Part shown: positions 7,619 through 30,272 of the stretch, in pieces
Numbering within the stretch: the first letter of the stretch is position 1
Layout: the number at the start of each line of letters is the position of its first letter
Assembly: GCA_021294815.2 (NCBI GenBank)
Contig: CP095464.1
Span: forward strand, 360,001-392,000
DNA length: 32,000 nt
Origin: Verrucomicrobiota bacterium
Lineage (GTDB): Bacteria; Verrucomicrobiota; Verrucomicrobiia; Opitutales; LL51
Direction: 5' to 3'
The notes under the pieces: generated by a model
Database searches by the model: none
What the model was told of the DNA's origin: nothing
What the model saw: the letters and a program-made list of their open reading frames with translations, nothing else
Program-made: the position numbers and the translations under genes

Positions 7619-7778
7619 AAGAGAAGCGGAAAAGGTTAAATTATAGGGATGACACGGCGGTAGAAAGTAATCTCTAACAAAACCGTTTCAGAAAGCCGCA
7701 GATATCAGACCGCTCATGCAGCACATCACTTCACCTTGCTTATCCTCAATAAGCATGACTGAGACAGACTTTTACAGA

Positions 7779-8480
7779 TCAATCATGATTAGACTGGTCC
7801 CACCCCGTAGCTGCCTCCGCCATATTTCTAAAACCGACCTCTTGGTCCAAAGTCACTTTGTTCCCGAATGGGTCGTACGTATTTTTTCCACGGGTATTAC
7901 CCTGGGTTTTAACACCCGCTTTTGTCACGCCTTCGTCTACGCTATCATTGACAGCGCTATTGCCAGATGTACTTCCCTCGTTACCCTTAAGAGGATCTTT
8001 ATGCTTAGGATTCTCTGGCTTTTTGCTATACCCCCCAACTTGCCAGGATATTTTATTGCCATCTGTCCTACCGGAAAAGTCTACATTCTTTCCAATCTTA
8101 CTCAAGAAGGCCTCAAACTTTTTCCAACGACCTAGGTGCGTGCGAGCCGTAAAGAAATTTCCACTTCGCTTATGCTTAAACATATCTATTACTTTTTGCT
8201 CAGCCGGAGTTGCGCTCCTATTTCCGACAGGTTTTATAGTTATATTACGTCCAAAGATTCTATCGAACAGCGCGAATTTTCCCTTGGTTCTCACTACCTC
8301 AAATTCGAGCTCCTGCTGTTGACCGAATTTGCCCGTTACGGTTATCTTTAAAATATCGTTTCCTTTTTCCCCGATTTTGTTCCCATTTCCCCCCCCTATT
8401 TTACTGGATTCTGCTCTAAACTCTTTGCCGCTTATCCCATTGAATGCCGCATTAAACTGAGTCGCACTCGGTATACTCAT
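7779..8480 (-). CDS. Hypothetical protein, Gly/Lys/Asn-rich, no signal peptide. Candidate secreted protein.
   Basis: Longest ORF in this AT-richer stretch (233 aa). The N-terminus MSIPSATQFNAAFNGISGK is hydrophilic. An internal segment (LKITVTGKFGQQQELEFEVVRTKGKFALFDRIFGRNITIKP) weakly resembles a module repeated in the 793 aa protein at 9125. Confidence 0.5.
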   Translation of the reverse strand: MSIPSATQFNAAFNGISGKEFRAESSKIGGGNGNKIGEKGNDILKITVTGKFGQQQELEFEVVRTKGKFALFDRIFGRNITIKPVGNRSATPAEQKVIDMFKHKRSGNFFTARTHLGRWKKFEAFLSKIGKNVDFSGRTDGNKISWQVGGYSKKPENPKHKDPLKGNEGSTSGNSAVNDSVDEGVTKAGVKTQGNTRGKNTYDPFGNKVTLDQEVGFRNMAEAATGWDQSNHD

Positions 8481-8493
8481 AGCGCCCGGATGA

Positions 8494-8523
8494 TGTCAAT
8501 TTTTACTCATTTGTCAATTTTTA
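8494..8523. repeat. Tandem direct repeat, 2 x TGTCAATTTTTA with an 18-nt period
   Basis: Exact 12-mers at 8494-8505 and 8512-8523, located 14-43 nt upstream of the start of the minus-strand 233 aa gene. On that strand each copy reads TAAAAATTGACA and so contains a consensus -35 hexamer. Confidence 0.6.
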
Positions 8524-8631
8524 TGCCTCCACCCTAACATTGACCTCAGAACAAGTACTAAAGGCGAGGAAAAACAGCAACCCGCGCGAAAAACACCCCA
8601 TCAGTCATATTTCTACAAAAATGCCCCTGGG

Positions 8632-8704
8632 TGGAGCCGATCGGTCTCGAACCGACGACCTCCACAATGCCATTGTGGCGCTCTACCAGCTGAGCTACGA
8701 CCCC
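8632..8704 (-). tRNA. tRNA-Ala (anticodon GGC)
   Basis: Hand-folded cloverleaf. Acceptor GGGGTCG/CGGCTCC with the G3:U70 alanine identity pair, D arm GCTC-AGCTGGTA-GAGC, anticodon arm CCACA-ATGGCAT-TGTGG, T arm GTCGG-TTCGAGA-CCGAT. CCA is not exactly encoded. Confidence 0.88.
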
Positions 8705-8708
8705 GTCC

Positions 8709-8785
8709 TGGCACGCCTCGCAGGATTCGAACTTGCAACCTTCTGATCCGTAGTCAGATGCTCTATCCAATTGAGCTAGAGGCGC
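8709..8785 (-). tRNA. tRNA-Arg (anticodon ACG)
   Basis: Hand-folded cloverleaf. Acceptor GCGCCTC/GAGGCGT, D arm GCTC-AATTGGATA-GAGC, anticodon arm TCTGA-CTACGGA-TCAGA, T loop TTCGAAT, encoded CCA. It lies 4 nt upstream of tRNA-Ala on the same strand. Confidence 0.88.
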
Positions 8786-9088
8786 CCAACACCCACAGTG
8801 TGTCACTCTAAATCCGCTTTTCAAGAAAAAATTCTTACCGAAACACGAACTGTAGCGCCCCCAAAAGCCATCGTGTTGCTTGGCAATGAAACCCCATTCG
8901 CATAGATTTTTCAGAAACGTCGCAACTCCAAATCGATGCTTTCGCTATATCATAGGGGGACTTTTACCGTCTACCGCTCTGGCGAGGGCCATTTACCGAG
9001 AAGATGACCTGCAGGTGCAATTCCTAAAAGTTGATACCCTTCCGTTTTCTAAATGAAACAAGGGAACTGCCATCAAAAGATTCCACGC

Positions 9089-9116
9089 TTGATAAAAAGT
9101 AAATAAACTGCAAAAT
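9089..9116 (+). promoter_or_regulatory. Sigma70-like promoter boxes for the 793 aa gene (TTGATA, 16 nt, CAAAAT)
   Basis: -35 at 9089-9094 and -10 at 9111-9116. Only 8 nt (agtaactc, no SD) separate the -10 from the ATG at 9125. Confidence 0.3.
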
Positions 9117-9124
9117 AGTAACTC

Positions 9125-11506
9125 ATGCCAAACGGTATCAGTTCGCCAATTCAAACAATGCGCACATATGATGTGTACAGTCTGGACGATTTAAACAAAT
9201 TACAGGACAATGTAAAAACTCATCGCAATGTTTTGAAGGGTCGAGTGGACGCAAGCCAGATCAAAAATGCAGGTACCATAACGGTTAATGGCCAATTAAA
9301 ACTAAAGCTTGAAGTCGAAAAGGGAAAAGGAATTTTCCGAAAAAATCGCACAAAAATCACCCTCATGGATACGGAAGGTAAATGCGTTACATCGTTCTAC
9401 CATAATCAGGGGAAAAAGTTTAAGGAAAATTTCCATAAAGCTTTCAATGAATTTAAGGAAATGAACGCCATTGTTGTTGATAAGACTGTCCCAGAAAAAA
9501 ATGCAAACATTGACAGGATTAAAAGCTTCAGTGGACAACAAATGCTACCCCCAGGAGACCTGATTTCAACTCCAACTGAGCATACGGCCACAAAACAGCC
9601 AGAAACTACAGCAAGTAACGACACAACGGCGACAAGTACTGTAGCAACTCAACCGCCTACTGCTGGTGTAAACGGGGCTGCTACAACGGGCACGACGACT
9701 GGCGTAGATAAACCCAAAGAACCTCTCAATATGAATCCAGGCATGGAGATTGTTGATGTGCAAACAAAACTTCAACCATGCCGTACACATATTCAGCGAC
9801 TAACCGTAGTTAGGGCACAACTATCGGCAGCCCAAAATAATTTTGGTATAGAGCATCCCGATATCCCGATGTATATGACGCTACCAAATGGTGGTATACA
9901 AACGGAATTAGGTATCGCACAACACACTTTAGAACATTTAAAATCCGAAGGAAAGTCTAGTACCACAAATATACAGGGTCTCGGAGGATCAGAAGGTAAC
10001 CGTGTGTTTTTAGAGGGGAGCGAAAAAACGGCTCAACGTATTCAAGACCAATTCCTCAGTCCCCTTCTCACGATGAGTGTGGATGAACGACAACAAAGTC
10101 TGACAGCTGTCATCGATACTTATAAACATTTTACAAACCAAATTACCGGGGATCGGACAATCAACGGAAGCGTCAAATCCCTAACGTTAACTGCAGACCA
10201 ACAAAAGGCCGAATTAGGTAAGTTAATAAGCATTCTAGAGGCAGCAAAAAGAGAATTGAGCAACGAAGGCTCAGAAATCAGGCAAAAAATTGAAACCTCC
10301 CCCGGAACAACCCTTTGCTCGATTATGAAATTTACCTCAAATGGACAAGATGTGAAAGAATTAGCAAAAGAGGTAAAAAACAACCATGACACCTTGAAAA
10401 AAGGCGAGGGGATGGAATTTAATAGAACCATCAATGACACAACATTCAAAGTATCGCTTTCTAAACCCAAAAAGTTCTTTGGGAAATCTGGCACACAAGT
10501 TACATTCCAAGATCCACAGGGATACTCTGTGTCTTTTGTATTTGACAAAGGGAAAGATCTGGAGGCGAAAATTAAAGATGCCCTCACATCAGTCGCTGCC
10601 AAGATGTATACCGGACAATTTAGAGAATTAGAAACCGAGCGTCTTTTCAACACACCGACTGAAAATTTCTCGCGCCAATCGCTCGATGATGTAAAGGAAC
10701 TGGGGAGCCTTTACGCCGACCCCAACTCTCCCAAGATTCAAGAACTGGGAAACAAATTAAATGACATTCTTTTGATGCTAGAAGAAAATATTCAAAATGC
10801 GAATCTTCAAGCAGCTAAAGATATATGGTACATGGCAGACGCCATAATGGACGCTTTCAAGAATCTCGACGAACCTCTCCCCGACGTTCAGCGGGTTATA
10901 CGCGACAAAGCCGCAAATATAAAAGAGAACGCTCAAACTATCAAGAATCAAGCCAAAGTTGAACAAACAAGCTCTGAAGCCGCTCAACCTGAAACAACCC
11001 CGGTGGCGACAAATGGAGAAGTTTCAGCGCCGGCAGCTCAAGCCGTAGATATGACTTCCACCCCAGATACGTCTCCTGCTCCGGTTAATACGACAGCGAC
11101 CCCACAAGAATCGATACCGACGGGTATATCACCAGAATTGCAAAAAATTCTCGAGACGCCAACTCAAGACCTTTCCGTGGACGATGTAAAGAAACTCATT
11201 CACCCCTATTGTGATCCCAATTCCTCGGATGCGCCAAAACTCGAAGAGAAAGTTAACGACGTCCTGGATGCGCTCATAGAAGCTCTTCCTCAGGGAAGAA
11301 CGCCAACTGACGCGGCGCATGAAGCACTCGCACCGCTGTATTATCCCAATAGTTTGAAAAGCGACGCCGTATCCGCTAAGTTTGAAAAAATATGCAGTAT
11401 AATGGAAAAGCTTCCGGACTCTGGCTTTGTTTATATTGTCAAAGGTCAAAAATTGTTCCGGGCTTCTGAACAAAAAACTGCAATCTACAGAAACCTGAAA
11501 CTCTAA
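9125..11506 (+). CDS. Large modular hypothetical protein (793 aa). Candidate secreted or T3SS-delivered protein.
   Basis: Single long ORF with no signal peptide or TM segment. It has two Thr/Pro/Ala-rich low-complexity linkers and two pairs of internally duplicated modules (see findings). Confidence 0.7.
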   Translation: MPNGISSPIQTMRTYDVYSLDDLNKLQDNVKTHRNVLKGRVDASQIKNAGTITVNGQLKLKLEVEKGKGIFRKNRTKITLMDTEGKCVTSFYHNQGKKFKENFHKAFNEFKEMNAIVVDKTVPEKNANIDRIKSFSGQQMLPPGDLISTPTEHTATKQPETTASNDTTATSTVATQPPTAGVNGAATTGTTTGVDKPKEPLNMNPGMEIVDVQTKLQPCRTHIQRLTVVRAQLSAAQNNFGIEHPDIPMYMTLPNGGIQTELGIAQHTLEHLKSEGKSSTTNIQGLGGSEGNRVFLEGSEKTAQRIQDQFLSPLLTMSVDERQQSLTAVIDTYKHFTNQITGDRTINGSVKSLTLTADQQKAELGKLISILEAAKRELSNEGSEIRQKIETSPGTTLCSIMKFTSNGQDVKELAKEVKNNHDTLKKGEGMEFNRTINDTTFKVSLSKPKKFFGKSGTQVTFQDPQGYSVSFVFDKGKDLEAKIKDALTSVAAKMYTGQFRELETERLFNTPTENFSRQSLDDVKELGSLYADPNSPKIQELGNKLNDILLMLEENIQNANLQAAKDIWYMADAIMDAFKNLDEPLPDVQRVIRDKAANIKENAQTIKNQAKVEQTSSEAAQPETTPVATNGEVSAPAAQAVDMTSTPDTSPAPVNTTATPQESIPTGISPELQKILETPTQDLSVDDVKKLIHPYCDPNSSDAPKLEEKVNDVLDALIEALPQGRTPTDAAHEALAPLYYPNSLKSDAVSAKFEKICSIMEKLPDSGFVYIVKGQKLFRASEQKTAIYRNLKL

Positions 11507-11702
11507 AAAACGCGAATGGCGTGTCGGAGCATCTCGCAACATGATCCGAGACAACACGGTGAATGGAGTTTTGCGAAAATATTTCCACAAAATGAGTGGA
11601 AATATTTCGATTATAGACTGGATGGCGGGAATAACAGGTGCAGATAAATGACCCGCAAGTGGAATTTCGAAGCTGTCATTGAAGGGGTAAGATTTGGCTA
11701 GA

Positions 11703-11925
11703 AAAACAAACGCGCCCCATATAGAGGCGCGCTGTTGCTATGAAAATACAAAATAAATAACCTACCCTTGGTTTCGGAAAAGCGTTTGGAGGCCCTGGCT
11801 CGTCCTATCTGAGATTTTCGAAGACAGTTCGTTCATGTAGCTTAGTTTGAGTACGAGAAATTACATTTCCAGGAAATTTCCGGGTTGAAAGACTGTGTTC
11901 GCAGGTGAATTTTAAGTGCATCGCC
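11703..11925. repeat. Repeat copy A: degenerate duplicate of the sctI 3' end plus downstream hairpin
   Basis: Aligns by eye with 13340-13560, including exact runs tgttgctatgaaaatacaaaa (21 nt) and agcgtttggaggccctggctcgt (23 nt). The offset is about 1632-1637 nt. Confidence 0.8.
11762..11925 (-). pseudogene. Remnant of an sctI-like 3' end, with an in-frame stop and decayed upstream part
   Basis: The minus-strand translation reads ...PGNFLEM*FLVLKLSYMNELSSKISDRTSQGLQTLFRNQG*. The intact gene reads ...SSKDLLEMQFLVLQLSYVNELSSKVSDKTSQGLQTLFRNQG*. A CAA to TAA change interrupts the frame, and there is no upstream ORF. Confidence 0.75.
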
Positions 11926-11954
11926 AACAAACACGAATCAGTATGCGGAACTTA

Positions 11955-11982
11955 TTTATATTTAAAATAAAATTTATACAAT
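11955..11982 (+). promoter_or_regulatory. Sigma70-like promoter boxes for the 380 aa gene (TTTATA, 16 nt, TACAAT)
   Basis: -35 at 11955-11960 and -10 at 11977-11982. 8 nt (actaaatc, no SD) precede the ATG at 11991. Confidence 0.3.
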
Positions 11983-11990
11983 ACTAAATC

Positions 11991-13133
11991 ATGGGATCTC
12001 TAATCAATAATTTACGGAATTACGGATTTATCGATGGCATCAAGCAAACATTTTCAGATATAAACGTGAAAAAGGCCAAATTTGACCTGAAAATAGCGAT
12101 GGCACCTCATCCCAAACTGGATGGTATACGACAGGCGCTTGTCGGAGGAAAACTTTCTCATGTTAATGGCAAAGAATTATCTCAAACAACAAGTGTCCCC
12201 TCGAGTGTCCCGAAGTTTATACAGACAAAGTTTGAACGGACGGTAAGATTTCTAAATGACAAAGTAAATTTCCGAACACAAAGCCTCCGAGACAAAGATG
12301 ACTGGGACAGTGGCCTCATCACAACAACAACCAAAGAAAATGCCGAGAAATTTTCAGCACGTGACATCAAGAGACTCGCCAATGCAGCACGATGGCTTCC
12401 TCAAGGTAGTTCTGAATCGAACCATGCCAAGGAAATGGTTCACGCCGCTCTAGACCTTATAAGCACCAAAATAAACAAGATGAAGACCTTAGCACAAACG
12501 ACCTCAAAAAAACTAGCAGCTATAGCGAAACTTTTCCCTGAGGAAGTAGCAAAAGCTGTTGCAGATGCTCCGGATTCCTCGAATGATCTTCAAAAATTGC
12601 TTCCTAAGGAAAAACCTTCTGCATCAGAAATTTTTAAAAATAACAACCCAATACCTAAACCTGCGCCGGGTAATCTTTCAGAATTTCACCAGGAAGAAAG
12701 TTCCACGATACCAAATAATCCCACAGAACTCTCCCAACCTCAACGACCAGCACAAGAAGAGTTGATTTCGAACCCGGGAAAACCGCTCGATGACTTTGAA
12801 GAAAAAGTTCCAGAAAGTGGCAATCAAGCGCAAACCAATACTCCAGGTGGTCCGTCGCAGATTTCACCACAAAACAGCAGCTCCATGGAAGAAGCCTCAG
12901 AAGTGTCTCTTTTAGACTCCGGAGTTAAAGTAACTGTAAAAGATCTTGCTGGCATCATGAAAAATCTGGCTGATGTTATGCCAGGAACGAATCTCAATAG
13001 CACCATAAAAAGGGTAGCTGATGTCGATGCAAAAGCGGCGAAAGAACTCAAGAAACTCCTCAGAGAGTCCCAACCAAAAGTTTCTGCTTTCTCCAAATTT
13101 TTAAACTTCTTCCAAACGAAACCCAAATCATGA
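11991..13133 (+). CDS. Hypothetical protein (380 aa) with a Pro/Ser/Gln-rich disordered centre. Candidate T3SS substrate.
   Basis: Long ORF with no TM segment or signal peptide and a hydrophilic N-terminus (MGSLINNLRNYGF). It is bracketed by the two copies of the sctI-3'/hairpin repeat. Confidence 0.6.
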   Translation: MGSLINNLRNYGFIDGIKQTFSDINVKKAKFDLKIAMAPHPKLDGIRQALVGGKLSHVNGKELSQTTSVPSSVPKFIQTKFERTVRFLNDKVNFRTQSLRDKDDWDSGLITTTTKENAEKFSARDIKRLANAARWLPQGSSESNHAKEMVHAALDLISTKINKMKTLAQTTSKKLAAIAKLFPEEVAKAVADAPDSSNDLQKLLPKEKPSASEIFKNNNPIPKPAPGNLSEFHQEESSTIPNNPTELSQPQRPAQEELISNPGKPLDDFEEKVPESGNQAQTNTPGGPSQISPQNSSSMEEASEVSLLDSGVKVTVKDLAGIMKNLADVMPGTNLNSTIKRVADVDAKAAKELKKLLRESQPKVSAFSKFLNFFQTKPKS

Positions 13134-13339
13134 TCGAGAATGGTCTCCCAGAACGCCCATCTTAATAATAGGCTTGCAAGCAGAATGAGAACACGTTGTA
13201 ACTTTTCAGAGGGGTACCACGCCATAAAAATGAACTCTCAGAGCAAGAACGCCCCCTCAAAAAATAAGCGGGATCAGAATTACTTTTCAATAAATCCACG
13301 TTAGTTGCCAATGACCACAAACATAACACTCCTTCCGCG

Positions 13340-13560
13340 AAAATCAACGCGCCCATATAGAGGCGCGTTGTTGCTATGAAAATACAAAACAACTTATCCT
13401 TGATTGCGAAAGAGCGTTTGGAGGCCCTGGCTCGTTTTGTCTGAAACTTTCGAGGAAAGCTCATTCACGTAGCTCAACTGGAGCACGAGAAATTGCATCT
13501 CTAAAAGGTCCTTGCTTGAAGGATCACGGCCGTTTGCGGATAGATAGTTAATGCGACGCG
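13340..13560. repeat. Repeat copy B: the functional sctI 3' end plus terminator hairpin
   Basis: Partner of 11703-11925, as described for that feature. Confidence 0.8.
13345..13370. terminator. GC-rich hairpin between the convergent 380 aa gene and sctI, possibly a bidirectional terminator
   Basis: Stem caacgcgcc / ggcgcgttg (9 bp) with the loop catataga. It is followed by ttgttgct on the plus strand and attttcgcgg on the minus strand, so the T-tracts are modest. Confidence 0.5.
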
Positions 13561-13828
13561 TAATCCCTTTGAAAACATCGCGGACCGATTGAATTGAATC
13601 TAAAATGCCCTGCGTCGGCGAAGACTGCACGGGATTGATGCCCATGCCGAGTTTCGCATTCTGTAAGTTGGCGTCCTGGAGCGCCGCATTGAAAACTTGC
13701 CCGTCCTTAAACGGAGGAACAACATTCGCATCCCAAAACTCAACGTTGCCCATATTGACGCGGCCAACGGTATTGACCTTGCTTACAAGCTCTTGCGCTT
13801 GCGCGACCGCCGCAACTTGATGTACCAT
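13394..13828 (-). CDS. sctI: T3SS inner rod protein (SctI / YscI / PrgJ family)
   Basis: 144 aa from the ATG at 13828, with the RBS AAGGAAGGG upstream. The C-terminus DLLEMQFLVLQLSYVNELSSKVSDKTSQGLQTLFRNQG follows the pattern of the YscI C-terminus (DLMLMQWSLIRITIQEELIAKTAGRMSQNVETLSKGG). It sits after the sctF and YscG-like genes. Confidence 0.7.
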   Translation of the reverse strand: MVHQVAAVAQAQELVSKVNTVGRVNMGNVEFWDANVVPPFKDGQVFNAALQDANLQNAKLGMGINPVQSSPTQGILDSIQSVRDVFKGITRRINYLSANGRDPSSKDLLEMQFLVLQLSYVNELSSKVSDKTSQGLQTLFRNQG

Positions 13829-13832
13829 AAAA

Positions 13833-14225
13833 TTACCCTTCCTTGATGATTTTTGTCGCCAATTTGACCGCATCAGGATCGTGGCCGCCAGCGCTAACCT
13901 CTTCGAGCACAGCGTGGCTTTGGCTCCGTTGCCCTACCTGGTGCAACATAAAGCCGTAAAATGCCTTCGCCATTTCGCTCTCCGGATTAACATGGAGCGC
14001 ACCTTCAACCAGTAGCTTCGATGCTGCAGTATATTCCCCAAAAACCATATGCATAAACGCATAGGCAATGTAGACATACTCGTTTTCGGGGCGAGCCGCG
14101 AGAACGCCCTCAAAGATACGTTCCGCTGTCTTTTTTCGCCCACAACCCGTCGCGACATAACCGATGTCAACGAGCAGTTGCAGCATCTCTGCGGAAATTG
14201 CTTCCCGACCCAATGATCGATCCAT
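13833..14225 (-). CDS. TPR-like T3SS chaperone (YscG/CdsG-like needle co-chaperone)
   Basis: 130 aa all-helical protein with TPR-like A/Y/F spacing (AERIFEGVLAARPENEYVYIAYAFMHMVFGEYTAASKLL). It lies immediately downstream of the needle gene, as in the yscE-F-G and cdsE-F-G arrangements. Confidence 0.6.
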   Translation of the reverse strand: MDRSLGREAISAEMLQLLVDIGYVATGCGRKKTAERIFEGVLAARPENEYVYIAYAFMHMVFGEYTAASKLLVEGALHVNPESEMAKAFYGFMLHQVGQRSQSHAVLEEVSAGGHDPDAVKLATKIIKEG

Positions 14226-14238
14226 CCGCGATTAAAAT

Positions 14239-14547
14239 TTAACGAATGTTCTGCGTAATTTTTGTAAGCGTATCACCGACGAGACGAATGATACCCGTAA
14301 CCGTCGCCGAAACCGTTCCCCAAGTCTGAACCATCGCTTGTAAACGGAGCAATGTCCCCTGGTCAATATCACTCGCGTTACTTCCTTCAATACAACTAAT
14401 CGTTTCCGCAAGGTTCTTTTCGTATGTGTGCAGATAACTCGATAGCGTCTCATACATATTCATGATGCTAAGATGTTGAGTTACTGTCCCCCAAGCCATC
14501 TCAGAAGCTGGCTTGAACTCTAAATCCGGTGTTGCTGGTATTGCCAT
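14239..14547 (-). CDS. sctF: T3SS needle filament protein (SctF / YscF / CdsF family)
   Basis: 102 aa from the ATG at 14547, with the RBS AAGGA 8 nt upstream. The C-terminal helix DQGTLLRLQAMVQTWGTVSATVTGIIRLVGDTLTKITQNIR has the needle-family pattern (LL.LQ....W.......S.....D....I). The longer ORF-track start at 14604 lacks an RBS. Confidence 0.75.
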   Translation of the reverse strand: MAIPATPDLEFKPASEMAWGTVTQHLSIMNMYETLSSYLHTYEKNLAETISCIEGSNASDIDQGTLLRLQAMVQTWGTVSATVTGIIRLVGDTLTKITQNIR

Positions 14548-14612
14548 CCTTATATCCTTTGTTGTGTGTGGAGAGCAGCATAAACCGATTTTTTGAAATC
14601 GCAATAAAAATT

Positions 14613-14843
14613 TTACTGAAAATTAATAATAACGTCTTGAGCCTGGATGAGAGCCTGTTTTAATTGGTCGTAGAGCGCAAATTCGTCGGGTGGGAGGCCA
14701 TGACTGAGATGAGATTGCATCTCTTGTTGGAATGCTTGCAACTTACTTAAAAGTTCTTGGCGATATTGCCCATTGGGATCCTCAAGGAGCTTGCGTTCCA
14801 TTTCTGTTAACGTTAGGCGCTTCGATTGATTCTCCCTATTCAT
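14613..14843 (-). CDS. YscE/CdsE-like small helical needle co-chaperone
   Basis: 76 aa from the ATG at 14843 (MNRENQSKRLTLTEMERKLLEDPNGQYRQELLSKLQAFQQEMQSHLSHGLPPDEFALYDQLKQALIQAQDVIINFQ). It is a two-helix protein whose size and position match yscE and cdsE, directly upstream of sctF. The 123 aa ORF-track version would run through the terminator hairpin. Confidence 0.55.
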   Translation of the reverse strand: MNRENQSKRLTLTEMERKLLEDPNGQYRQELLSKLQAFQQEMQSHLSHGLPPDEFALYDQLKQALIQAQDVIINFQ

Positions 14844-14880
14844 GAAGTGGAAAGGTAGAGAATTTCTGTGAGGTCGCGAG

Positions 14881-14916
14881 GTTAAAATAATATGCGGGGG
14901 CTTTCCCTGCCCCCGC
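14881..14916 (-). terminator. Strong GC hairpin plus T-tract between sctD and the YscE-like gene
   Basis: Stem GCGGGGGC / GCCCCCGC (8 bp, positions 14894-14901 and 14909-14916) with a 7-nt loop. On the minus strand it is followed by ATATTATTTTAAC. Confidence 0.55.
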
Positions 14917-14985
14917 GAGTTAGCCCTCCTTCGCACCGTCACCATCCATCCAAAGGGAGACGTCACGACCATCCAGCCATCCAAT

Positions 14986-16395
14986 CTACATCCACTCGAG
15001 GTCTAACTTAATTTCTTCTTCTGCGTTTTTGATCGTCACACTATCCTGCTCGATCGTCTCGACAACGTAACCACTCGGTAATACCGATCCCTGGAAGTAT
15101 TTATTCCCATTCTTTAGATTCACCCAATCCAGCCCGCTATCGTTGAAGTTGACGCTGTCGATCTTGCCTCCAAAAAATTTCTCAATCGTTAAATTCCGAT
15201 CCGTCGAAACGCCGACGTTAAAACTTAACTGTGCTTTCTTCTTAAAATTCTTTTCAAGGTCGCCCTTCAATTGACTCCAAGTACCTTTGAGGTCGTCAGC
15301 GATAGTACCCGTTACGGCGACACCGGCGTCATCTGCCTTAACCTCTAAAATTTGCTCCATTTTATACTGTTTAATCAGATTCTCGGCAAGCTCCTCGGCA
15401 GAATCCTTGTTGAGTACCTGATCATCGAGCTTGTTGACGCCCTTAATCTTTTCAATCTCCTCGCGTAATGCAGCCCAAGCCTCTCCTTTTTTGACATAGC
15501 CCAGCGCAATGTAATCCCCAAATTCATCGCCTTGTTTAACGACGACATTTTGTTTCGCATCCTGGACGGCTTCACGGATCTGGTTTAAAACTTTTTCGGC
15601 ACAACTGAGCTTTACGGACGCCTTTTCGGTGATATCGCGAACTGCTTTTTTGATTTTTGCCGAATCATCGAGCGTCTGAGTGTACCCAACAACCGAGTAT
15701 CCACCCTCCCCTGTCGCCGTTACCTTCGTTCGGGCGTTGAGTTTTAGATCACGCACTACCCGCTCAATCCGCTTCTCTAAGGGCTCGAGCTTCACCACTC
15801 GTACCGACGGGCGGTCCTTAACCATGACGTAACCAATAGAAATGGCAACCGCAAGTGCAGTACTAATACTCACACCGATGGAACACCGTACCATCCGCTG
15901 TTTCAGGGTGTAATGAATCTTCGCACCGGGACCAATCCCATCCGCAGCATTGATATCTCGGTTTTCGAGTTCCTTTCCAGCGACATCGCTTTCCGAAGCC
16001 TTTAGACCTTCATTGCCCACCTCTTCCGAAGGCGACTCGATTTTTTCTAGCTCTGGAAATGGCTGCTGCTCGACGTCTGCCCAACGTTTACTCTCACTCT
16101 CACCGACCATAAGGTGGGTGTTGCCAAGAGTAATGAAGGTAAAATTCTCAACATCGCTCGGTTCCCTTAAAAGCTTCCCCGCAATAAAAACATCCCCCTC
16201 TAACGGTGTCAGTTTTATGTGGTCACCCTCCAATTGGAGCTCGGCATGCCGATCGGCAACTGCATCGTCATCGATGACAACATCACACGCATCCGCAGTC
16301 CCAATGATAACCGCTTCCGCCGGGATTTCAAACTCCGCACCCCGGTGAGGTCCGGATAAGACTCGTAACGTCAAACCCATCGCACTGCTGGCCAC
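14986..16395 (-). CDS. sctD: T3SS inner-membrane ring protein with an N-terminal FHA domain (SctD / YscD / CdsD family)
   Basis: 469 aa. The N-terminal FHA-like fold reads LTLRVLSGPHRGAEFEIPAEAVIIGTADACDVVIDDDAVADRHAELQLEGDHIKL. There is one TM segment (CSIGVSISTALAVAISIGYVMV) and then a roughly 270 aa periplasmic region. It heads the needle gene set. Confidence 0.75.
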   Translation of the reverse strand: MASSAMGLTLRVLSGPHRGAEFEIPAEAVIIGTADACDVVIDDDAVADRHAELQLEGDHIKLTPLEGDVFIAGKLLREPSDVENFTFITLGNTHLMVGESESKRWADVEQQPFPELEKIESPSEEVGNEGLKASESDVAGKELENRDINAADGIGPGAKIHYTLKQRMVRCSIGVSISTALAVAISIGYVMVKDRPSVRVVKLEPLEKRIERVVRDLKLNARTKVTATGEGGYSVVGYTQTLDDSAKIKKAVRDITEKASVKLSCAEKVLNQIREAVQDAKQNVVVKQGDEFGDYIALGYVKKGEAWAALREEIEKIKGVNKLDDQVLNKDSAEELAENLIKQYKMEQILEVKADDAGVAVTGTIADDLKGTWSQLKGDLEKNFKKKAQLSFNVGVSTDRNLTIEKFFGGKIDSVNFNDSGLDWVNLKNGNKYFQGSVLPSGYVVETIEQDSVTIKNAEEEIKLDLEWM

Positions 16396-16506
16396 GAACT
16401 AAGGAAATTTTCCCCATAAGTCAATATTTTTGAATAAAAGTTTACAAGGATACGGTTTGTCGTTGCGCAATAACGCCTATTTATTAAGGTTTCAAGCGGA
16501 TTGAGG

Positions 16507-17847
16507 ATGGAAGTCACAAAGATCGGAGGAGAAGGGCGTACGGTCACGATGGGACCTCCGGTATACGGAAAATATCGGGGCCAGGCCGTCAGTAATGTCC
16601 TAGTTAATACTGAATCGATTACGCAGTTGGCATCACAGATCGCGGGTTATGAAGCGGTACGTCAACGGCAACGCCCAGATCTTCTTGCACGCAAAGTCGA
16701 ATCAAAAAAGATTTTCCGAGCCAAGGAAAAAGTGCTTGCGGAATACACCGAACGCCTCGGGCAACGCTCCCAGTCAAAGCGTTATAAAGAGACCTATGCG
16801 GAATTCAATCGCTGGCAGTACAAAGAAGAATTTGAGGAAAATCCCGAAAAACTCCGCGACGAAATTTTATATAAAGTCGCCGGCAACTTTGGCGAGGTCA
16901 CCGAACAGGATAACCTTTTGGAGTACGCTATAGCGACGAACGAAATCGACCGAGAACATCTAGAAGGCGCCGTGGTGCAAACCAAAAATATGATCGCGTA
17001 TTATAACGCTCCGGAAAAGTATCGTCTCGATCTCGGATTTGCCAATACCGAGCGTCTTCGGTGGGAGAAGAAGCTCCAAACACTCGAAACGAATCTCAAA
17101 TCGAATACACTATTAAAGGAGCAACTCCAACAGGCACAAGTCGAGCTACGGAAAATTCATCGGCAGGAAATTCGCGATGGGTACAATCTCATTCCCAAGG
17201 CTGCCGCGATCGCGATGCAGTTTGGAGACGATTCCGGAGATACCGCTATTAGCTTGGCAATCGCCTACCGCGATGAGATCTTGACGATTAAAAACCCGCT
17301 CGATGTCTTTGAGATCTTCATCAAACGTCAGGAGCAGAAACGCGAACGATTTCGTCCATATATTGACTCGATGATCGCCCTCTTTGGCTATGATATGTCC
17401 TCGGCCAACCCCTCACGTTCTCGCGAAGAACTCTCCGGTGTCCGCGATAGTCTCTACCGTGTCGAAATCTGCGGTCAAGTATACGACAGTGTGGGTGATG
17501 TGTATGCCGGGATCCAACACCTTTTTCCCGAAGTTCAAGAACCGCTCGCCCATAAAACCCAGGTCGACGCAACCCGATCGCTCGTCCAGATGACTCAGGG
17601 CGCCTTTCCCAGTATCCAGCAAATGACAAATTTCCTCATATTACTCTGCGCTCGATGTAAGACCGACCTCGATATCGCGATCTATACGCTTAACCAGACG
17701 ATCGAACTCGTCCGCGACCTACCCGAAAAATTTTTTAAGGATGATCAGTCACAGGGACAGTTTTTGAAAACCGCACAAAAGAAGCTCGACGAATATATTC
17801 TTCAAGAAGAAGAGATGGCGGGCGCTGCATACTTGGAGGGCAAATAA
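16507..17847 (+). CDS. sctW: T3SS gatekeeper-like protein (SctW / YopN-TyeA / CopN / MxiC family), tentative
   Basis: 446 aa helical protein from the ATG at 16507, with no TM segment. It is transcribed divergently from sctD, and its stop overlaps the start of a class I chaperone-like gene (ATAATGG). Size and context fit the copN-scc1 arrangement. The family was assigned by context and helical character, not by a motif I can verify. Confidence 0.5.
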   Translation: MEVTKIGGEGRTVTMGPPVYGKYRGQAVSNVLVNTESITQLASQIAGYEAVRQRQRPDLLARKVESKKIFRAKEKVLAEYTERLGQRSQSKRYKETYAEFNRWQYKEEFEENPEKLRDEILYKVAGNFGEVTEQDNLLEYAIATNEIDREHLEGAVVQTKNMIAYYNAPEKYRLDLGFANTERLRWEKKLQTLETNLKSNTLLKEQLQQAQVELRKIHRQEIRDGYNLIPKAAAIAMQFGDDSGDTAISLAIAYRDEILTIKNPLDVFEIFIKRQEQKRERFRPYIDSMIALFGYDMSSANPSRSREELSGVRDSLYRVEICGQVYDSVGDVYAGIQHLFPEVQEPLAHKTQVDATRSLVQMTQGAFPSIQQMTNFLILLCARCKTDLDIAIYTLNQTIELVRDLPEKFFKDDQSQGQFLKTAQKKLDEYILQEEEMAGAAYLEGK

Positions 17848-18233
17848 TGGAACGTCACGTTCAAGAAGCACTGAACCAGATGAGTACAAAAATGAACCTA
17901 CCGCCTTTCCAAATCAATGGCGCTGGTGTTATTTACTTGGTTCTCGAAAATGCGGGCGAGCTCTTTATTGACGTCCAACCCGATGCGGTCTATACGTATA
18001 TTTTTAATACATTTGACTTTCTTGATTACGAGCTCACAACGGAGGCGATGTCGTTTTGCGGTCTCGCTACCGCTTACACCATTCCGACCAATCCGGTTTT
18101 GCGTGGCGATCATGATCTCGGCTTCGCGATTAAAATTACGACCGAGGATCTGACGCTCGTCAACCTCGAGGGCGCCATTAACCAACTCATCGATATGGCA
18201 GTCCATCTCCGGAAACTTTCGATTCGTTTATAA
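17847..18233 (+). CDS. Class I T3SS chaperone-like protein (CesT/SycE/Scc1-like)
   Basis: 128 aa acidic protein. The pattern LNQMSTKMNLPPFQINGAGVIYLVLENAGELFIDVQPDAVYTYIFN...EGAINQLIDMAVHLR matches the alpha-beta-beta-beta-alpha layout of class I chaperones. Its start overlaps the stop of the upstream gatekeeper-like gene. Confidence 0.55.
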   Translation: MERHVQEALNQMSTKMNLPPFQINGAGVIYLVLENAGELFIDVQPDAVYTYIFNTFDFLDYELTTEAMSFCGLATAYTIPTNPVLRGDHDLGFAIKITTEDLTLVNLEGAINQLIDMAVHLRKLSIRL

Positions 18234-18277
18234 TCGCATTTTTAAGAAAAACGGTTATTGTGGACCGCGGATGGGTT

Positions 18278-18682
18278 ATGAGTACGACAGAAAATGAGGT
18301 CGCAGAGTTTGACTTTGATTACGGGCTTTCGAGCGTCAGCAAGAGTATAGGGCCGCAACAGCGCATGAAGTTACCGGTCGCGAGCCGGGTCGATCCCAGC
18401 GAAGGTAAAGTCGAAGAAAAATTAAAGAAGGTCTTTCGGATTGGGACGGTTGATAACCTCGTTATGCAACTTCTGCGTCCCGAAATCCAGGACCGAAGCC
18501 TTCTTTCGCCGATCTGCTTCCGGGAGAAAATTCGCGAAATCCGTACGCTTCTCCAAAAAGAGCGCCCCAGCGACCTCGCTCCCGGCGATGACCTCTACGA
18601 ACACGTCGATACGCTGCTCCAAGAAGAAGAAAATAAATCCGAACTTCTCGACCAATACCGCCACACGCTTTTATTGGGCTAA
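18278..18682 (+). CDS. Hypothetical acidic protein, possibly the third gene of the sctW operon
   Basis: 134 aa from the ATG at 18278 (MSTTENEVAEFDFDYG...). It is on the same strand, 44 nt after the chaperone-like gene. No family was recognised. Confidence 0.45.
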   Translation: MSTTENEVAEFDFDYGLSSVSKSIGPQQRMKLPVASRVDPSEGKVEEKLKKVFRIGTVDNLVMQLLRPEIQDRSLLSPICFREKIREIRTLLQKERPSDLAPGDDLYEHVDTLLQEEENKSELLDQYRHTLLLG

Positions 18683-29207: not shown

Positions 29208-30215
29208 ATGGATATGCCAATAAACGATGGGTATAATTACCCTGCGCCACGACAGCATCAAGTTTATCAAGCACCTGCAGCAAAATCAAGCTGGGGTAGC
29301 TACCTTCCTTGGCGTTGGTTCTCAGGAAATTCCGATGCATACAGTGTTCAGGAATCAAGTATTGCTGGTAAACAAAATGCCCCAGATGTTCAACAATACA
29401 CTCCTGCTTCCAAGTCACCTGCAACAAAATCAAGTTGGAGTAGTTACCTTCCTTGGCGCTGGTTCTCAGAGAATTCCGACACATATGATGTGCAGGAACA
29501 GAGCATTGCCGATGTCCCAGACATTTCCGTCGATCAACAATATGATCAAGTTTCTCAGACTTCAATGCAAATGACATATGACGCTAGAGGGCTACCAACG
29601 GATCCATTTGCAAATGGTGCCGATGCGCCATTGAGTTTGATGCAAATTTCAAGCTTTGACGACAGACTCAATGCATATGCAGAGGAATTACTCTTAAAGG
29701 ATTCAAACGACAAAACTCCGGTACTTCAAGCCATTTTTCGCCTCTACAAACAGTACCCCGGAAAAGCTTATGCAATTCATAACGTCTTAAACGATTGGGT
29801 TGGAGACATTATCCCATTGTTGCGCCATGCCTTTACTGGATGCCGGAGATCGCGTATACTTACACAAGACCTCAAAAATCTCCTCCACTCGATTGATACG
29901 CTGCTGTATGTTGTTCAATCCGGAGGAGATGTGTTTAAAACACTCCAAGAAGCTCAAGCTTGTCAGGACCTTGATACGATTGTAACTCGCTCAAGACTTC
30001 TCAGCTATTTTGAAATTTTCATGCAAACCGATGGGGTCGATCTTGAACGCTTCTTCAATAGCATATTTGACCTTTGGGAAGACCTTCATTCTCCGCAGAT
30101 GAAACGTTTGATTAGCCGTATTTTGGATATGGGTAACGGCGCTCACCGCTCAATTAATCCCGTTCGAAATTCGCGGGATCTTTCGGCGATCTACCGCTAT
30201 CGGAGGCCTAATTGA
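29208..30215 (+). CDS. Hypothetical protein, paralog family member 1 (335 aa), with an N-terminal Trp-rich tandem repeat
   Basis: Long ORF. The C-terminal 180 aa or so align by eye with the protein at 30366 (QYP...W...LR.AF..C...R...L..LL..ID..L.V.Q.GG ... SPQM.R). The N-terminal QAPAAKSSW corresponds to VAPAVAKSG in the paralog. Confidence 0.65.
   Translation: MDMPINDGYNYPAPRQHQVYQAPAAKSSWGSYLPWRWFSGNSDAYSVQESSIAGKQNAPDVQQYTPASKSPATKSSWSSYLPWRWFSENSDTYDVQEQSIADVPDISVDQQYDQVSQTSMQMTYDARGLPTDPFANGADAPLSLMQISSFDDRLNAYAEELLLKDSNDKTPVLQAIFRLYKQYPGKAYAIHNVLNDWVGDIIPLLRHAFTGCRRSRILTQDLKNLLHSIDTLLYVVQSGGDVFKTLQEAQACQDLDTIVTRSRLLSYFEIFMQTDGVDLERFFNSIFDLWEDLHSPQMKRLISRILDMGNGAHRSINPVRNSRDLSAIYRYRRPN
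29272..29516 (+). repeat. Intragenic tandem repeat with a 144-nt (48 aa) period, 2 copies
   Basis: cacctgca(g/a)caaaatcaag(c/t)tgg(g/a)gtag(c/t)taccttccttggcg(t/c)tggttctcag... starts at 29272 and again at 29416. The protein units are PAAKSSWGSYLPWRWFSGNSDAYSVQESSIA and PATKSSWSSYLPWRWFSENSDTYDVQEQSIA. Confidence 0.85.
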
Positions 30216-30242: not shown

Positions 30243-30272
30243 CGCGCGCCTCCTGGCGCGTGTATTGTTTTC
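30243..30272 (+). terminator. Rho-independent terminator-like hairpin after paralog 1
   Basis: Stem cgcgcgcc / ggcgcgtg (8 bp, one G:T pair) with the loop tcct, followed by tattgttttc. Confidence 0.5.

Follow-up and report, generated by a model that had tools for sequence, protein, structure and literature searches.

Among described secretion loci, the exchangeable effector locus (EEL) of the tripartite Hrp pathogenicity island of P. syringae is a hypervariable block of effector-type genes which reaches from the last gene of a type III secretion system (T3SS) structural operon to a tRNA gene. A block of similar layout is described here in a 32,000-nucleotide stretch of the genome of a Verrucomicrobiota bacterium (GenBank assembly GCA_021294815.2, contig CP095464.1, positions 360,001 to 392,000 of the forward strand; hereafter the window). 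In this stretch the 3' end of an sctI-like inner-rod gene, together with its terminator hairpin, occurs a second time as a partial copy (hereafter the fragment), on the other side of an orphan gene for a 380-aa protein (p380). As in the EEL, the content of the block varies between close relatives, its flanks are conserved and its G+C content is lower. The two differ in that the present slot is found in the Verrucomicrobiota, is anchored at the sctI terminator and at a tRNA-Arg/tRNA-Ala pair, shows no integrase or insertion sequence remnants, and is occupied by orphan genes without known effector homology. On this comparison we regard the slot as resembling the EEL by analogy, not by homology. 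To our knowledge, a partial duplicate of the end of a structural gene is not a described feature of the EEL. The feature is a scar of an ordinary type, familiar from other secretion-system loci, which is met here in an unusual phylum and with the end of a structural gene as the anchor.

A second parallel is given by type VI secretion system (T6SS) effector-immunity arrays and by Rhs and contact-dependent inhibition (CDI) loci, in which modules anchor by conserved upstream homology, join illegitimately at the other end and leave behind displaced or orphan 3' ends and arrays, located downstream of the genes of the secretion system (PMC5361080). The displaced T6SS/Rhs fragments keep homology that permits later recombination, and homology-facilitated illegitimate recombination (HFIR) is the model proposed for T6SS effector-immunity displacement and for the Rhs/CDI orphans (PMC5361080). 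In those systems, however, the duplicated piece is part of a polymorphic toxin gene and travels with an immunity gene, whereas the piece duplicated here is the invariant C-terminal domain of the inner-rod gene with its terminator, and the adjoining gene is an unrelated, convergent one. Islands integrating into the 3' ends of tRNA, tmRNA or protein genes likewise leave direct repeats of a gene 3' end around foreign DNA, with the target intact and one copy partial. Such islands carry a tyrosine or serine integrase and short identical att cores. At our locus the direct repeats of a gene 3' end and the intact target were both found, but neither a recombinase nor the native distal end; moreover, the insert is a single-gene segment of 1.46 kb and the 170-bp repeats are patchy and only 81% identical. 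Compared with cassettes of integrons or of integrative mobile elements exploiting Xer (IMEX), the unit here is single, the other slot genes have no palindrome, and the palindrome doubles as the operon terminator. Finally, Campbell-type RecA-dependent integration also places a homologous segment as direct repeats around the insert, each of them a reciprocal hybrid of donor and recipient, and is reversible. Most known cases are suicide-vector insertions made in the laboratory and plasmid co-integrates, whereas a natural effector cassette of 1.6 kb would have to be supposed here.

Our reading of the locus, to which we would assign a probability of about 0.6, is that of a recombination footprint within an exchangeable gene slot, in which a cassette recombined by homology at one end and thereby duplicated the anchor. 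On local alignment, 11701-11869 and 13339-13501 form a direct repeat of ~ 81% identity. The alignment of 11650-11990 with 13290-13640 scores 175, as compared with 18.9 ± 2.3 (maximum 31) for 500 dinucleotide-preserving shuffles, and a repeat finder returned the same pair as a 115-nt segment (79%) and a 41-nt segment (95%) at a spacing of 1632-1636 nt. With such a score, far above the shuffles, the direct repeat reported 3' of sctI in the initial annotation is real. The details on which that annotation relied were reproduced as well, namely an exact 21-mer (at 11733 and 13369) and an exact 23-mer (at 11781 and 13413), each found twice only in the window and never in shuffles, the minus-strand translation of the upstream copy (...PGNFLEM*FLVLKLSYMNELSSKISDRTSQGLQTLFRNQG*), and the in-frame TAA at 11861-11863 where live sctI has CAA. 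As for its extent, the repeat had been said to hold the GC hairpin and about 50 codons of sctI and to end at 11925 and 13560. The hairpin and the sctI end are indeed present, joined by a 26-nt 3' untranslated region (3'UTR), but the codons are the last 36 only and those ends were placed ~ 55 nt too far. In agreement, tblastn on the upstream copy matched sctI residues 107-144.

Furthermore, the 5' part of the upstream copy, described at first as fading out, stops at an abrupt breakpoint. Indeed, at 11869/13501 the in-register 12-mers drop from 8-12 to 2-5 matches out of 12, and beyond it the gapped alignment of 11870-11950 with 13502-13590 is no better than shuffles (P about 0.22-0.25). At the other side, synteny with every relative breaks off, to the nucleotide, at the outer repeat edge (11701/13339), homology with L007 and with L001, L002 and L005 ending at 13339-13340. 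Both hairpins fold, with -20.1 kcal/mol for the upstream copy (z = -4.2) and -17.9 kcal/mol for the live one. The upstream hairpin is matched by a terminator scan at 11733-11709, as a good terminator on the minus strand and a weaker one on the plus strand. Between the direct repeats lies a unit of 1.46 kb made of a spacer, the p380 gene and its promoter. The repeat thus has what a one-ended footprint is expected to leave, that is a duplicated segment which is the conserved anchor at a variable edge, and a sharp non-homologous inner junction.

The locus was compared with ten related loci. SctI had five database relatives, and contigs L001-L006, L010 and L011 were retrieved; a GTDB scan added L007, from an uncultured Verrucomicrobia metagenome-assembled genome, and L008 (Puniceicoccales), and cluster mates added L014 and L015. 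A metagenome scan with the SctI alignment gave one distant locus only. The closest relative, L007, matches the window at 91% identity through 10.4 kb that comprise T3SS genes and their neighbours and end at position 13339, and again at 96-97% from the tRNA pair outward (8836 and below). Between these edges the two are unrelated: L007 has 1.9 kb with one 551-aa gene (p551) where the window has 4.5 kb. In L001, L002, L005 and L006 the slot runs from the sctI hairpin through arrays of paralogous genes of 250, 318 and 384-403 aa, with an extra gene in some, to tRNA-Arg, inside which all four contigs end. L014 and L015 each have another different gene past the hairpin, and at least six different neighbour genes stand beside sctI across the relatives. 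The slot between the sctI terminator and tRNA-Arg/tRNA-Ala hence keeps its edges and differs in content in nearly every lineage of the clade, and the sctI 3' end with the 26-nt 3'UTR and hairpin is its conserved left edge. L007 has neither the second copy nor p380. Of the two outcomes named in the initial annotation as refuting it, neither was observed, the alignment being highly significant and no relative having an intact second sctI. Across L001-L008, blastn with a word size of 7 and a regular expression for the hairpin and UTR found one sctI end per locus, and a second sctI end or hairpin is absent from all syntenic loci that reach past sctI. The slot is also set apart by base composition, with G+C at third codon positions (GC3) of 0.36-0.44 in the three orphans around the tRNAs and of 0.50-0.60 in the flanks. 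The proposed comparison of GC and codon usage therefore shows slot genes to be atypical against their flanks but does not discriminate a newcomer, as p380 (GC3 0.36) and the other occupant of the slot, a 793-aa orphan (p793, GC3 0.39), are equally atypical.

The origin of the coding part of the fragment was examined on an alignment of the last 36 codons, with the live ends of the window, L007, L001, L002 and L005 and, later, L003, L010, L011 and L012. The live sctI ends differ among themselves by 3-14 substitutions, all of them synonymous, whereas 22-25 separate the fragment from any one of them (17-20 synonymous, 5 non-synonymous). In the comparison with the resident live end, third positions account for 17 of the 23 differences (18 synonymous to 5 non-synonymous), and against L007 there are 24 differences in 108 nt. 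The neutral expectation is ~ 72% non-synonymous changes, under which five or fewer out of 22 has P = 2e-6; by the Nei-Gojobori method the non-synonymous divergence (dN) is 0.05 and the synonymous divergence (dS) is saturated. Moreover, the fragment has retained the states of distant outgroups at positions 42 and 93, which places it outside the clade formed by the live genes sampled. Its five replacements are Q>stop, Q>K, V>M, V>I and K>R; the nonsense change and three of the others fall on residues that are invariant even in homologues of 41-47% identity, and the five look like the sole decay since inactivation. We infer that the coding part spent most of its divergence in a working sctI of another lineage. 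The synonymous excess and the outgroup placement therefore exclude a simple duplication in situ as well as a displaced native end, which should be L007-like. In this genome the fragment appears to be non-functional, without coding function, since a TAA directly follows the only in-frame upstream ATG.

Other parts of the fragment are close to the resident copy. The 41-nt core of UTR and hairpin is 95% identical between the two window copies, and three of its states, the A in GTATTTT, an extra C in AGCAACA and the loop TCTATAT, are unique to these two copies, L007, L001, L002 and L005 being different. Likewise, the CTC Leu codon within the 23-nt run occurs in the two window copies only; under a codon-aware null, a run of at least 23 has P = 0.045. 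Past the loop the fragment is nearer to L007 (GGGG, TTTG) than the live copy is, which is weak evidence. Together, the core and the 23-nt run indicate probable patches of crossover, gene conversion or heteroduplex repair between the copies. The repeat hence has the make-up of a donor/recipient hybrid, foreign-like in its coding part and resident-like in the core and the 23-nt run, with modest statistics for the patches.

A second instance of the module was found on L012, a 1593-nt contig from the same sample as L003. It carries the gene of P0007, which was the one homologue of p380 in an exhaustive phmmer search of 1.84 billion representatives (E = 1.4e-10); a word-index search of 5.8 billion proteins gave none. 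L012 is collinear with window positions 11762-13393. Its positions 1-105 are a reverse-strand sctI 3' fragment beginning at the stop codon, and 2-134 match window 11763-11895 at 76%, a likeness that runs 25 nt past the sctI breakpoint (P = 0.013 for 11871-11895 against 109-133). The L012 gene and p380 are 30% identical over 329 aa (E = 3e-19), and ~ 105 nt of the spacer are conserved, with a score of 34 against 17.7 ± 2.2 (P < 0.001). At the far end of L012 stands the hairpin/UTR, 3 nt short of its start, so that the contig is circularly permuted relative to the sctI end. However, L003 ends with exactly the 30 nt with which L012 starts and, as an assembly graph with k = 31 breaks at shared nodes, the permutation therefore cannot separate a circle from an integrated repeat. 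The p380-like gene of L012 (229-1494) has two in-frame stops and was called as a 239-aa protein and a 107-aa open reading frame (ORF), and is perhaps a pseudogene or else codes for a shortened effector.

The L012 fragment is almost the same as the live ends of its own clade, with 7 differences from that of L002, three of which replace invariant residues; from the window fragment it has 27, mostly at third positions, but the junction-proximal sequence is common to both. This shows that conversion has taken place in the L012 lineage too. As judged from the two instances, the unit of fragment, junction, p380-like gene and spacer is probably older than either current arrangement, or else moves as a unit, and its sctI-derived arm is apparently overwritten repeatedly from the neighbouring live copy. 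The divergence of the repeats, which had been proposed to date the acquisition of p380, is unusable as an insertion date because the fragment comes from the live gene of another lineage and has seemingly been patch-converted by the resident copy; the module is, besides, present in the distant L012.

Under the reading preferred here, the conserved sctI edge would serve as the homology anchor for the swapping of slot contents. Its duplication would result from a one-ended event, be it the Campbell-type integration of a circularised cassette by single crossover or HFIR with homology at one end only. The module could later have passed whole from lineage to lineage through ordinary homologous recombination, and crossover or conversion between fragment and live copy would have recurred, concentrated at the UTR/hairpin. 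The hairpin of the fragment may insulate p380 from read-through out of p793, perhaps incidentally. Several points weigh against this reading. The mosaic statistics are weak when taken alone, each patch being modestly significant and the core comparison involving a handful of sites, and the stronger conservation of the UTR/hairpin could in part come from terminator function. The module is known from two instances only, L012 being a lone 1.6-kb metagenomic contig, and its permutation is equally expected from a de Bruijn graph breaking at shared 30-mers. The window alone cannot tell Campbell-type integration from HFIR, nor an event in this lineage from one in an ancestor or donor. Lastly, the secretion of p380 and p793 is putative only, and both are candidate effectors. 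The locus offers a nucleotide-level view of candidate effector exchange beside a T3SS in the Verrucomicrobiota, in which phylum injectisomes and effectors have received hardly any study, and the slot between the sctI terminator and tRNA-Arg/tRNA-Ala can be used in practice to pick out candidate orphan effectors of these genomes.

Given that the module is found in two lineages, with ends better conserved than the gene, a bolder proposal is that of a mobilisable cassette with a dedicated attachment site, similar to those of integrons or IMEX, which would be excised as a circle and reinsert at the sctI UTR/hairpin core with a recombinase acting in trans. The circular permutation of L012 agrees with it, as does the fact that both organisms have an identical core at the palindromic hairpin and diverged arms, and that the hairpin stem and UTR are invariant despite near-saturated synonymous sites. 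On the other hand, no integrase, transposase or recombinase domain was found in any window ORF of at least 110 aa, in line with what the initial annotation had noted for integrases, nor any intI or xer-type gene in the window. The other slot genes have no such repeat, with one hairpin per relative, and plasmid, phage and viral collections gave no match. The permutation is accounted for by the assembly graph, and n = 2. We consider this cassette unlikely. The same holds for a variant in which the 1.6-kb unit (sctI fragment, junction, effector gene, spacer and UTR/hairpin) would be a recombinase-less mobile effector cassette, excising as a circle through recombination of its arm with the live sctI end, moving between verrucomicrobial lineages and re-inserting at the sctI terminator; this, too, is an improbable account. 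If true, the cassette reading would mean that effector genes are directed to a secretion-system locus by a novel route, with part of a T3SS structural gene acting as a portable attachment site which always docks new effector genes right behind the needle operon.

The initial annotation had put forward the integration into the sctI 3' end of an element bringing a replacement end, with decay of the displaced original end; the model considered here takes this integration as recent and the decay as neutral. A recombination footprint bracketing a lineage-specific gene beside the needle operon does stand, and the direct repeats around this single gene, along with the lack of a second copy and of p380 in L007, are as this model expects. 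The displaced and decaying native end does not stand, as an upstream copy with 24 differences in 108 nt is not L007-like and its overwhelmingly synonymous differences (18:5, P = 2e-6) are incompatible with the neutral decay of a native end. Furthermore, the unit is common to the distant lineage of L012 and the truncation is therefore not recent in this genome; the window also has no integrase. The dS of live sctI between the window and L007, 1.38 in codons 109-143 and 0.52 in codons 1-108, is a further point for the model and may point to a recombinant origin of the live 3' end, but it concerns 35 codons and the contrast is not significant. Sliding identity against L007 showed no clear step that would mark a recombination break in live sctI. 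As a whole, we find this model quite unlikely. In the last segment of sctI (13394-13501 in the window, 10292-10399 in L007), L007 is nearer to the L002/L005 clade than to the window.

An import from the tRNA side was considered too, in which a donor piece consisting of an sctI 3' end, a terminator, p793 and the tRNA would have recombined by homology at the tRNAs and illegitimately upstream of a resident p380, so that p793 would be the newcomer. Such an event accounts for the foreign coding part of the fragment, and p380 matches, weakly, the hidden Markov model of the paralogs whose native place in the sister clade is directly next to sctI (E = 4e-8, 22 bits), with p793 a complete orphan. However, in L012 the fragment and junction are linked to a p380-like and not to a p793-like gene, and the near-identical UTR/hairpin patch is left unaccounted for, which makes this import very unlikely.

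It is highly improbable that the fragment is functional, either as a short peptide from the C-terminus of SctI (one that regulates how rod or needle is assembled, for instance) or as a cis-acting RNA. It does span exactly the conserved SctI C-terminal domain (TIGR02497, residues 107-140), its substitutions are few and mostly conservative, and in L012 an intact 34-codon ORF runs from the conserved Met. In the window, though, the TAA right after this Met leaves a 24-codon ORF that was made by V>M, and invariant residues are changed in both organisms (Q>stop, Q>K, V>M and K>R in the window; E>K, Q>R and T>P in L012). The fragment has no evident promoter or ribosome-binding site, and an Rfam scan returned three tRNAs, nothing else, and no match on the fragment; conservation of the protein is accounted for by origin or conversion from live genes. 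As for an intragenomic tandem or segmental duplication of the sctI end and its neighbour gene followed by divergence (or, as the initial annotation had it, by insertion), it fits two ~ 170-bp direct repeats 1632-1636 bp apart and the tandem paralog arrays in the slot of relatives, but is effectively refuted, as p793 and p380 are without similarity to one another, their 3' spacers are equally unlike, and the coding part of the copy is an outgroup to all live ends and not the sister of that of its own genome.

Table 1. Coordinates of the features of the slot and its edges in the window (32,000 nt; relatives by contig label).
Feature	Position	Strand	Basis or remark
sctI-like inner-rod gene, 144 aa, last of the sctD-sctE-sctF-sctG-sctI operon	13394..13828	-	Weak profile matches and position
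Live repeat copy: hairpin (about 13345-13370), 3'UTR, stop TAA (13394-13396), sctI codons 109-144	13339..13501	-	
Spacer from p380 stop to live terminator	13134..13338	+	13226-13331 conserved with L012 1427-1534
p380, orphan, 380 aa, candidate effector	11991..13133	+	ORF; sole substantial ORF between the copies
Junction and AT-rich region upstream of p380	11870..11990	+	No likeness to live sctI
Upstream partial copy (fragment with hairpin)	11701..11869	-	Alignment, translation, terminator scan, fold, codon analysis
Upstream copy, remnant of sctI codons 109-144	11765-11869	-	
Upstream copy, stop TAG	11762-11764	-	
Upstream copy, 3'UTR	11734-11761	-	
Upstream copy, hairpin	11709-11733	-	
Near-identical core (hairpin and 3'UTR), 95% to 13352-13392	11716..11756	-	Repeat finder, multi-genome alignment
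p793, orphan, 793 aa, second slot occupant, convergent on the upstream hairpin	9125..11506	+	ORF
Variable (exchangeable) locus, whole	8837..13338	.	4.5 kb here; 1.9 kb in L007; 3.5-4.7 kb in L001/L002/L005
tRNA-Ala(GGC) and tRNA-Arg(ACG), conserved far slot boundary	8630..8785	-	Same pair in L007

The assignment of the 13394-13828 gene as an sctI-like inner-rod gene is made by position and by weak profile matches, and is to be taken as probable. PF17001 (T3SS_basalb_I) reaches 26.4 bits (E = 1e-5), under its cut-off of 32.4, and TIGR02497 (the SctI domain) 16 bits against a cut-off of 23.45, on residues 107-140, which are the duplicated part; in precomputed Pfam results the SctI homologues are listed under the needle family PF09392. 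On the minus strand, from 16395 to 13833, Pfam identifies SctD (Yop-YscD_cpl, FHA), SctE, SctF and a YscG/HrpB1-like tetratricopeptide repeat chaperone, after which comes sctI, and the order sctD-E-F-G-I is the same in L001-L007. SctW/TyeA, SycN-like and YscX-like genes are transcribed divergently from this operon. The injectisome gene set (sctD, E, F, G, I, sctW/TyeA, SycN-like and YscX-like, 13394-18682) is partial and stands amid housekeeping genes, the remaining genes of the window being plsX, those of ribosomal proteins L25 and L9, Pth, SSB, PntB, accB/accC, fabF, lepA and surE. The other T3SS genes must be located elsewhere in the genome, a scattered layout which recalls that of the Chlamydiota.

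The 26-nt sctI 3'UTR (TTGTTTTGTRTTTTCATAGCAA) and the stem ACGCGCC/GGCGCGT are near-invariant, with a variable loop, in window 13345-13393 and in L001-L007, L012, L014 and L015. In the same lineages synonymous sites are near saturation (dS about 1). The element does not occur in the more distant SctI loci L008 and L010. Such conservation of UTR and stem may go beyond the needs of a plain terminator. A second hairpin with a CGCGCC/GGCGCG stem stands at 30245-30260, 30 nt past an ORF that ends at 30215, which suggests that the GC stem is a common terminator type of the genome and not specific to sctI.

As had been stated from the outset, p380 is the only substantial ORF between the copies. It has a helical N-terminal half, disorder at residues ~ 200-315 and a helical C-terminus; its single-sequence AlphaFold2 model, with a predicted local distance difference test (pLDDT) score of 43.6, is unusable, and no Pfam or NCBIfam family matched it. 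Its 90% cluster mate P0009 (L013) was rejected as a spurious 57-aa protein on a phage-like contig. The AT-rich promoter attributed to p380 has a counterpart in the hexamer pair TTTATA-16-TACAAT at 11955-11982, but such matches are not enriched over shuffles. In the case of p793, no family matched and the protein itself was the only match among the 5.8 billion proteins; it has no similarity to p380, p551 or p233 (the 233-aa orphan described below), and blastn and tblastx of its region against all retrieved related loci gave nothing. No tandem repeats were found in the slot. A perfect 14-bp AT-rich inverted repeat (CGAAAATATTTCCAC...GTGGAAATATTTCG) lies at 11573-11607, 67 nt past the p793 stop and with no T-run after it, and folds with -17.3 kcal/mol (z = -4.7).

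The sctI-adjacent gene of L014 (10903-10962) and p380 (12585-12644) have in common a 20-residue block, DLQKLLPKEK[S/P]SAS..., and 43 nt at 86%, and are otherwise unrelated. The paralogs of the sister clade (L001, L002, L005 and L006, about 10540-15100) are 24-31% identical to one another and contain internal repeat modules. Slot genes appear to be mosaics of short common modules.

Beyond the tRNAs, a second variable patch is observed at 7637-8620 of the window, with an orphan 233-aa ORF on the minus strand (7779-8480), where L007 has unrelated sequence (12571-13879). The genes next to it (fabF-like and a major facilitator superfamily gene) are 96-98% identical to those of L007. With variable patches on both sides, both flanks of the tRNA-Arg/tRNA-Ala pair are therefore hot spots.

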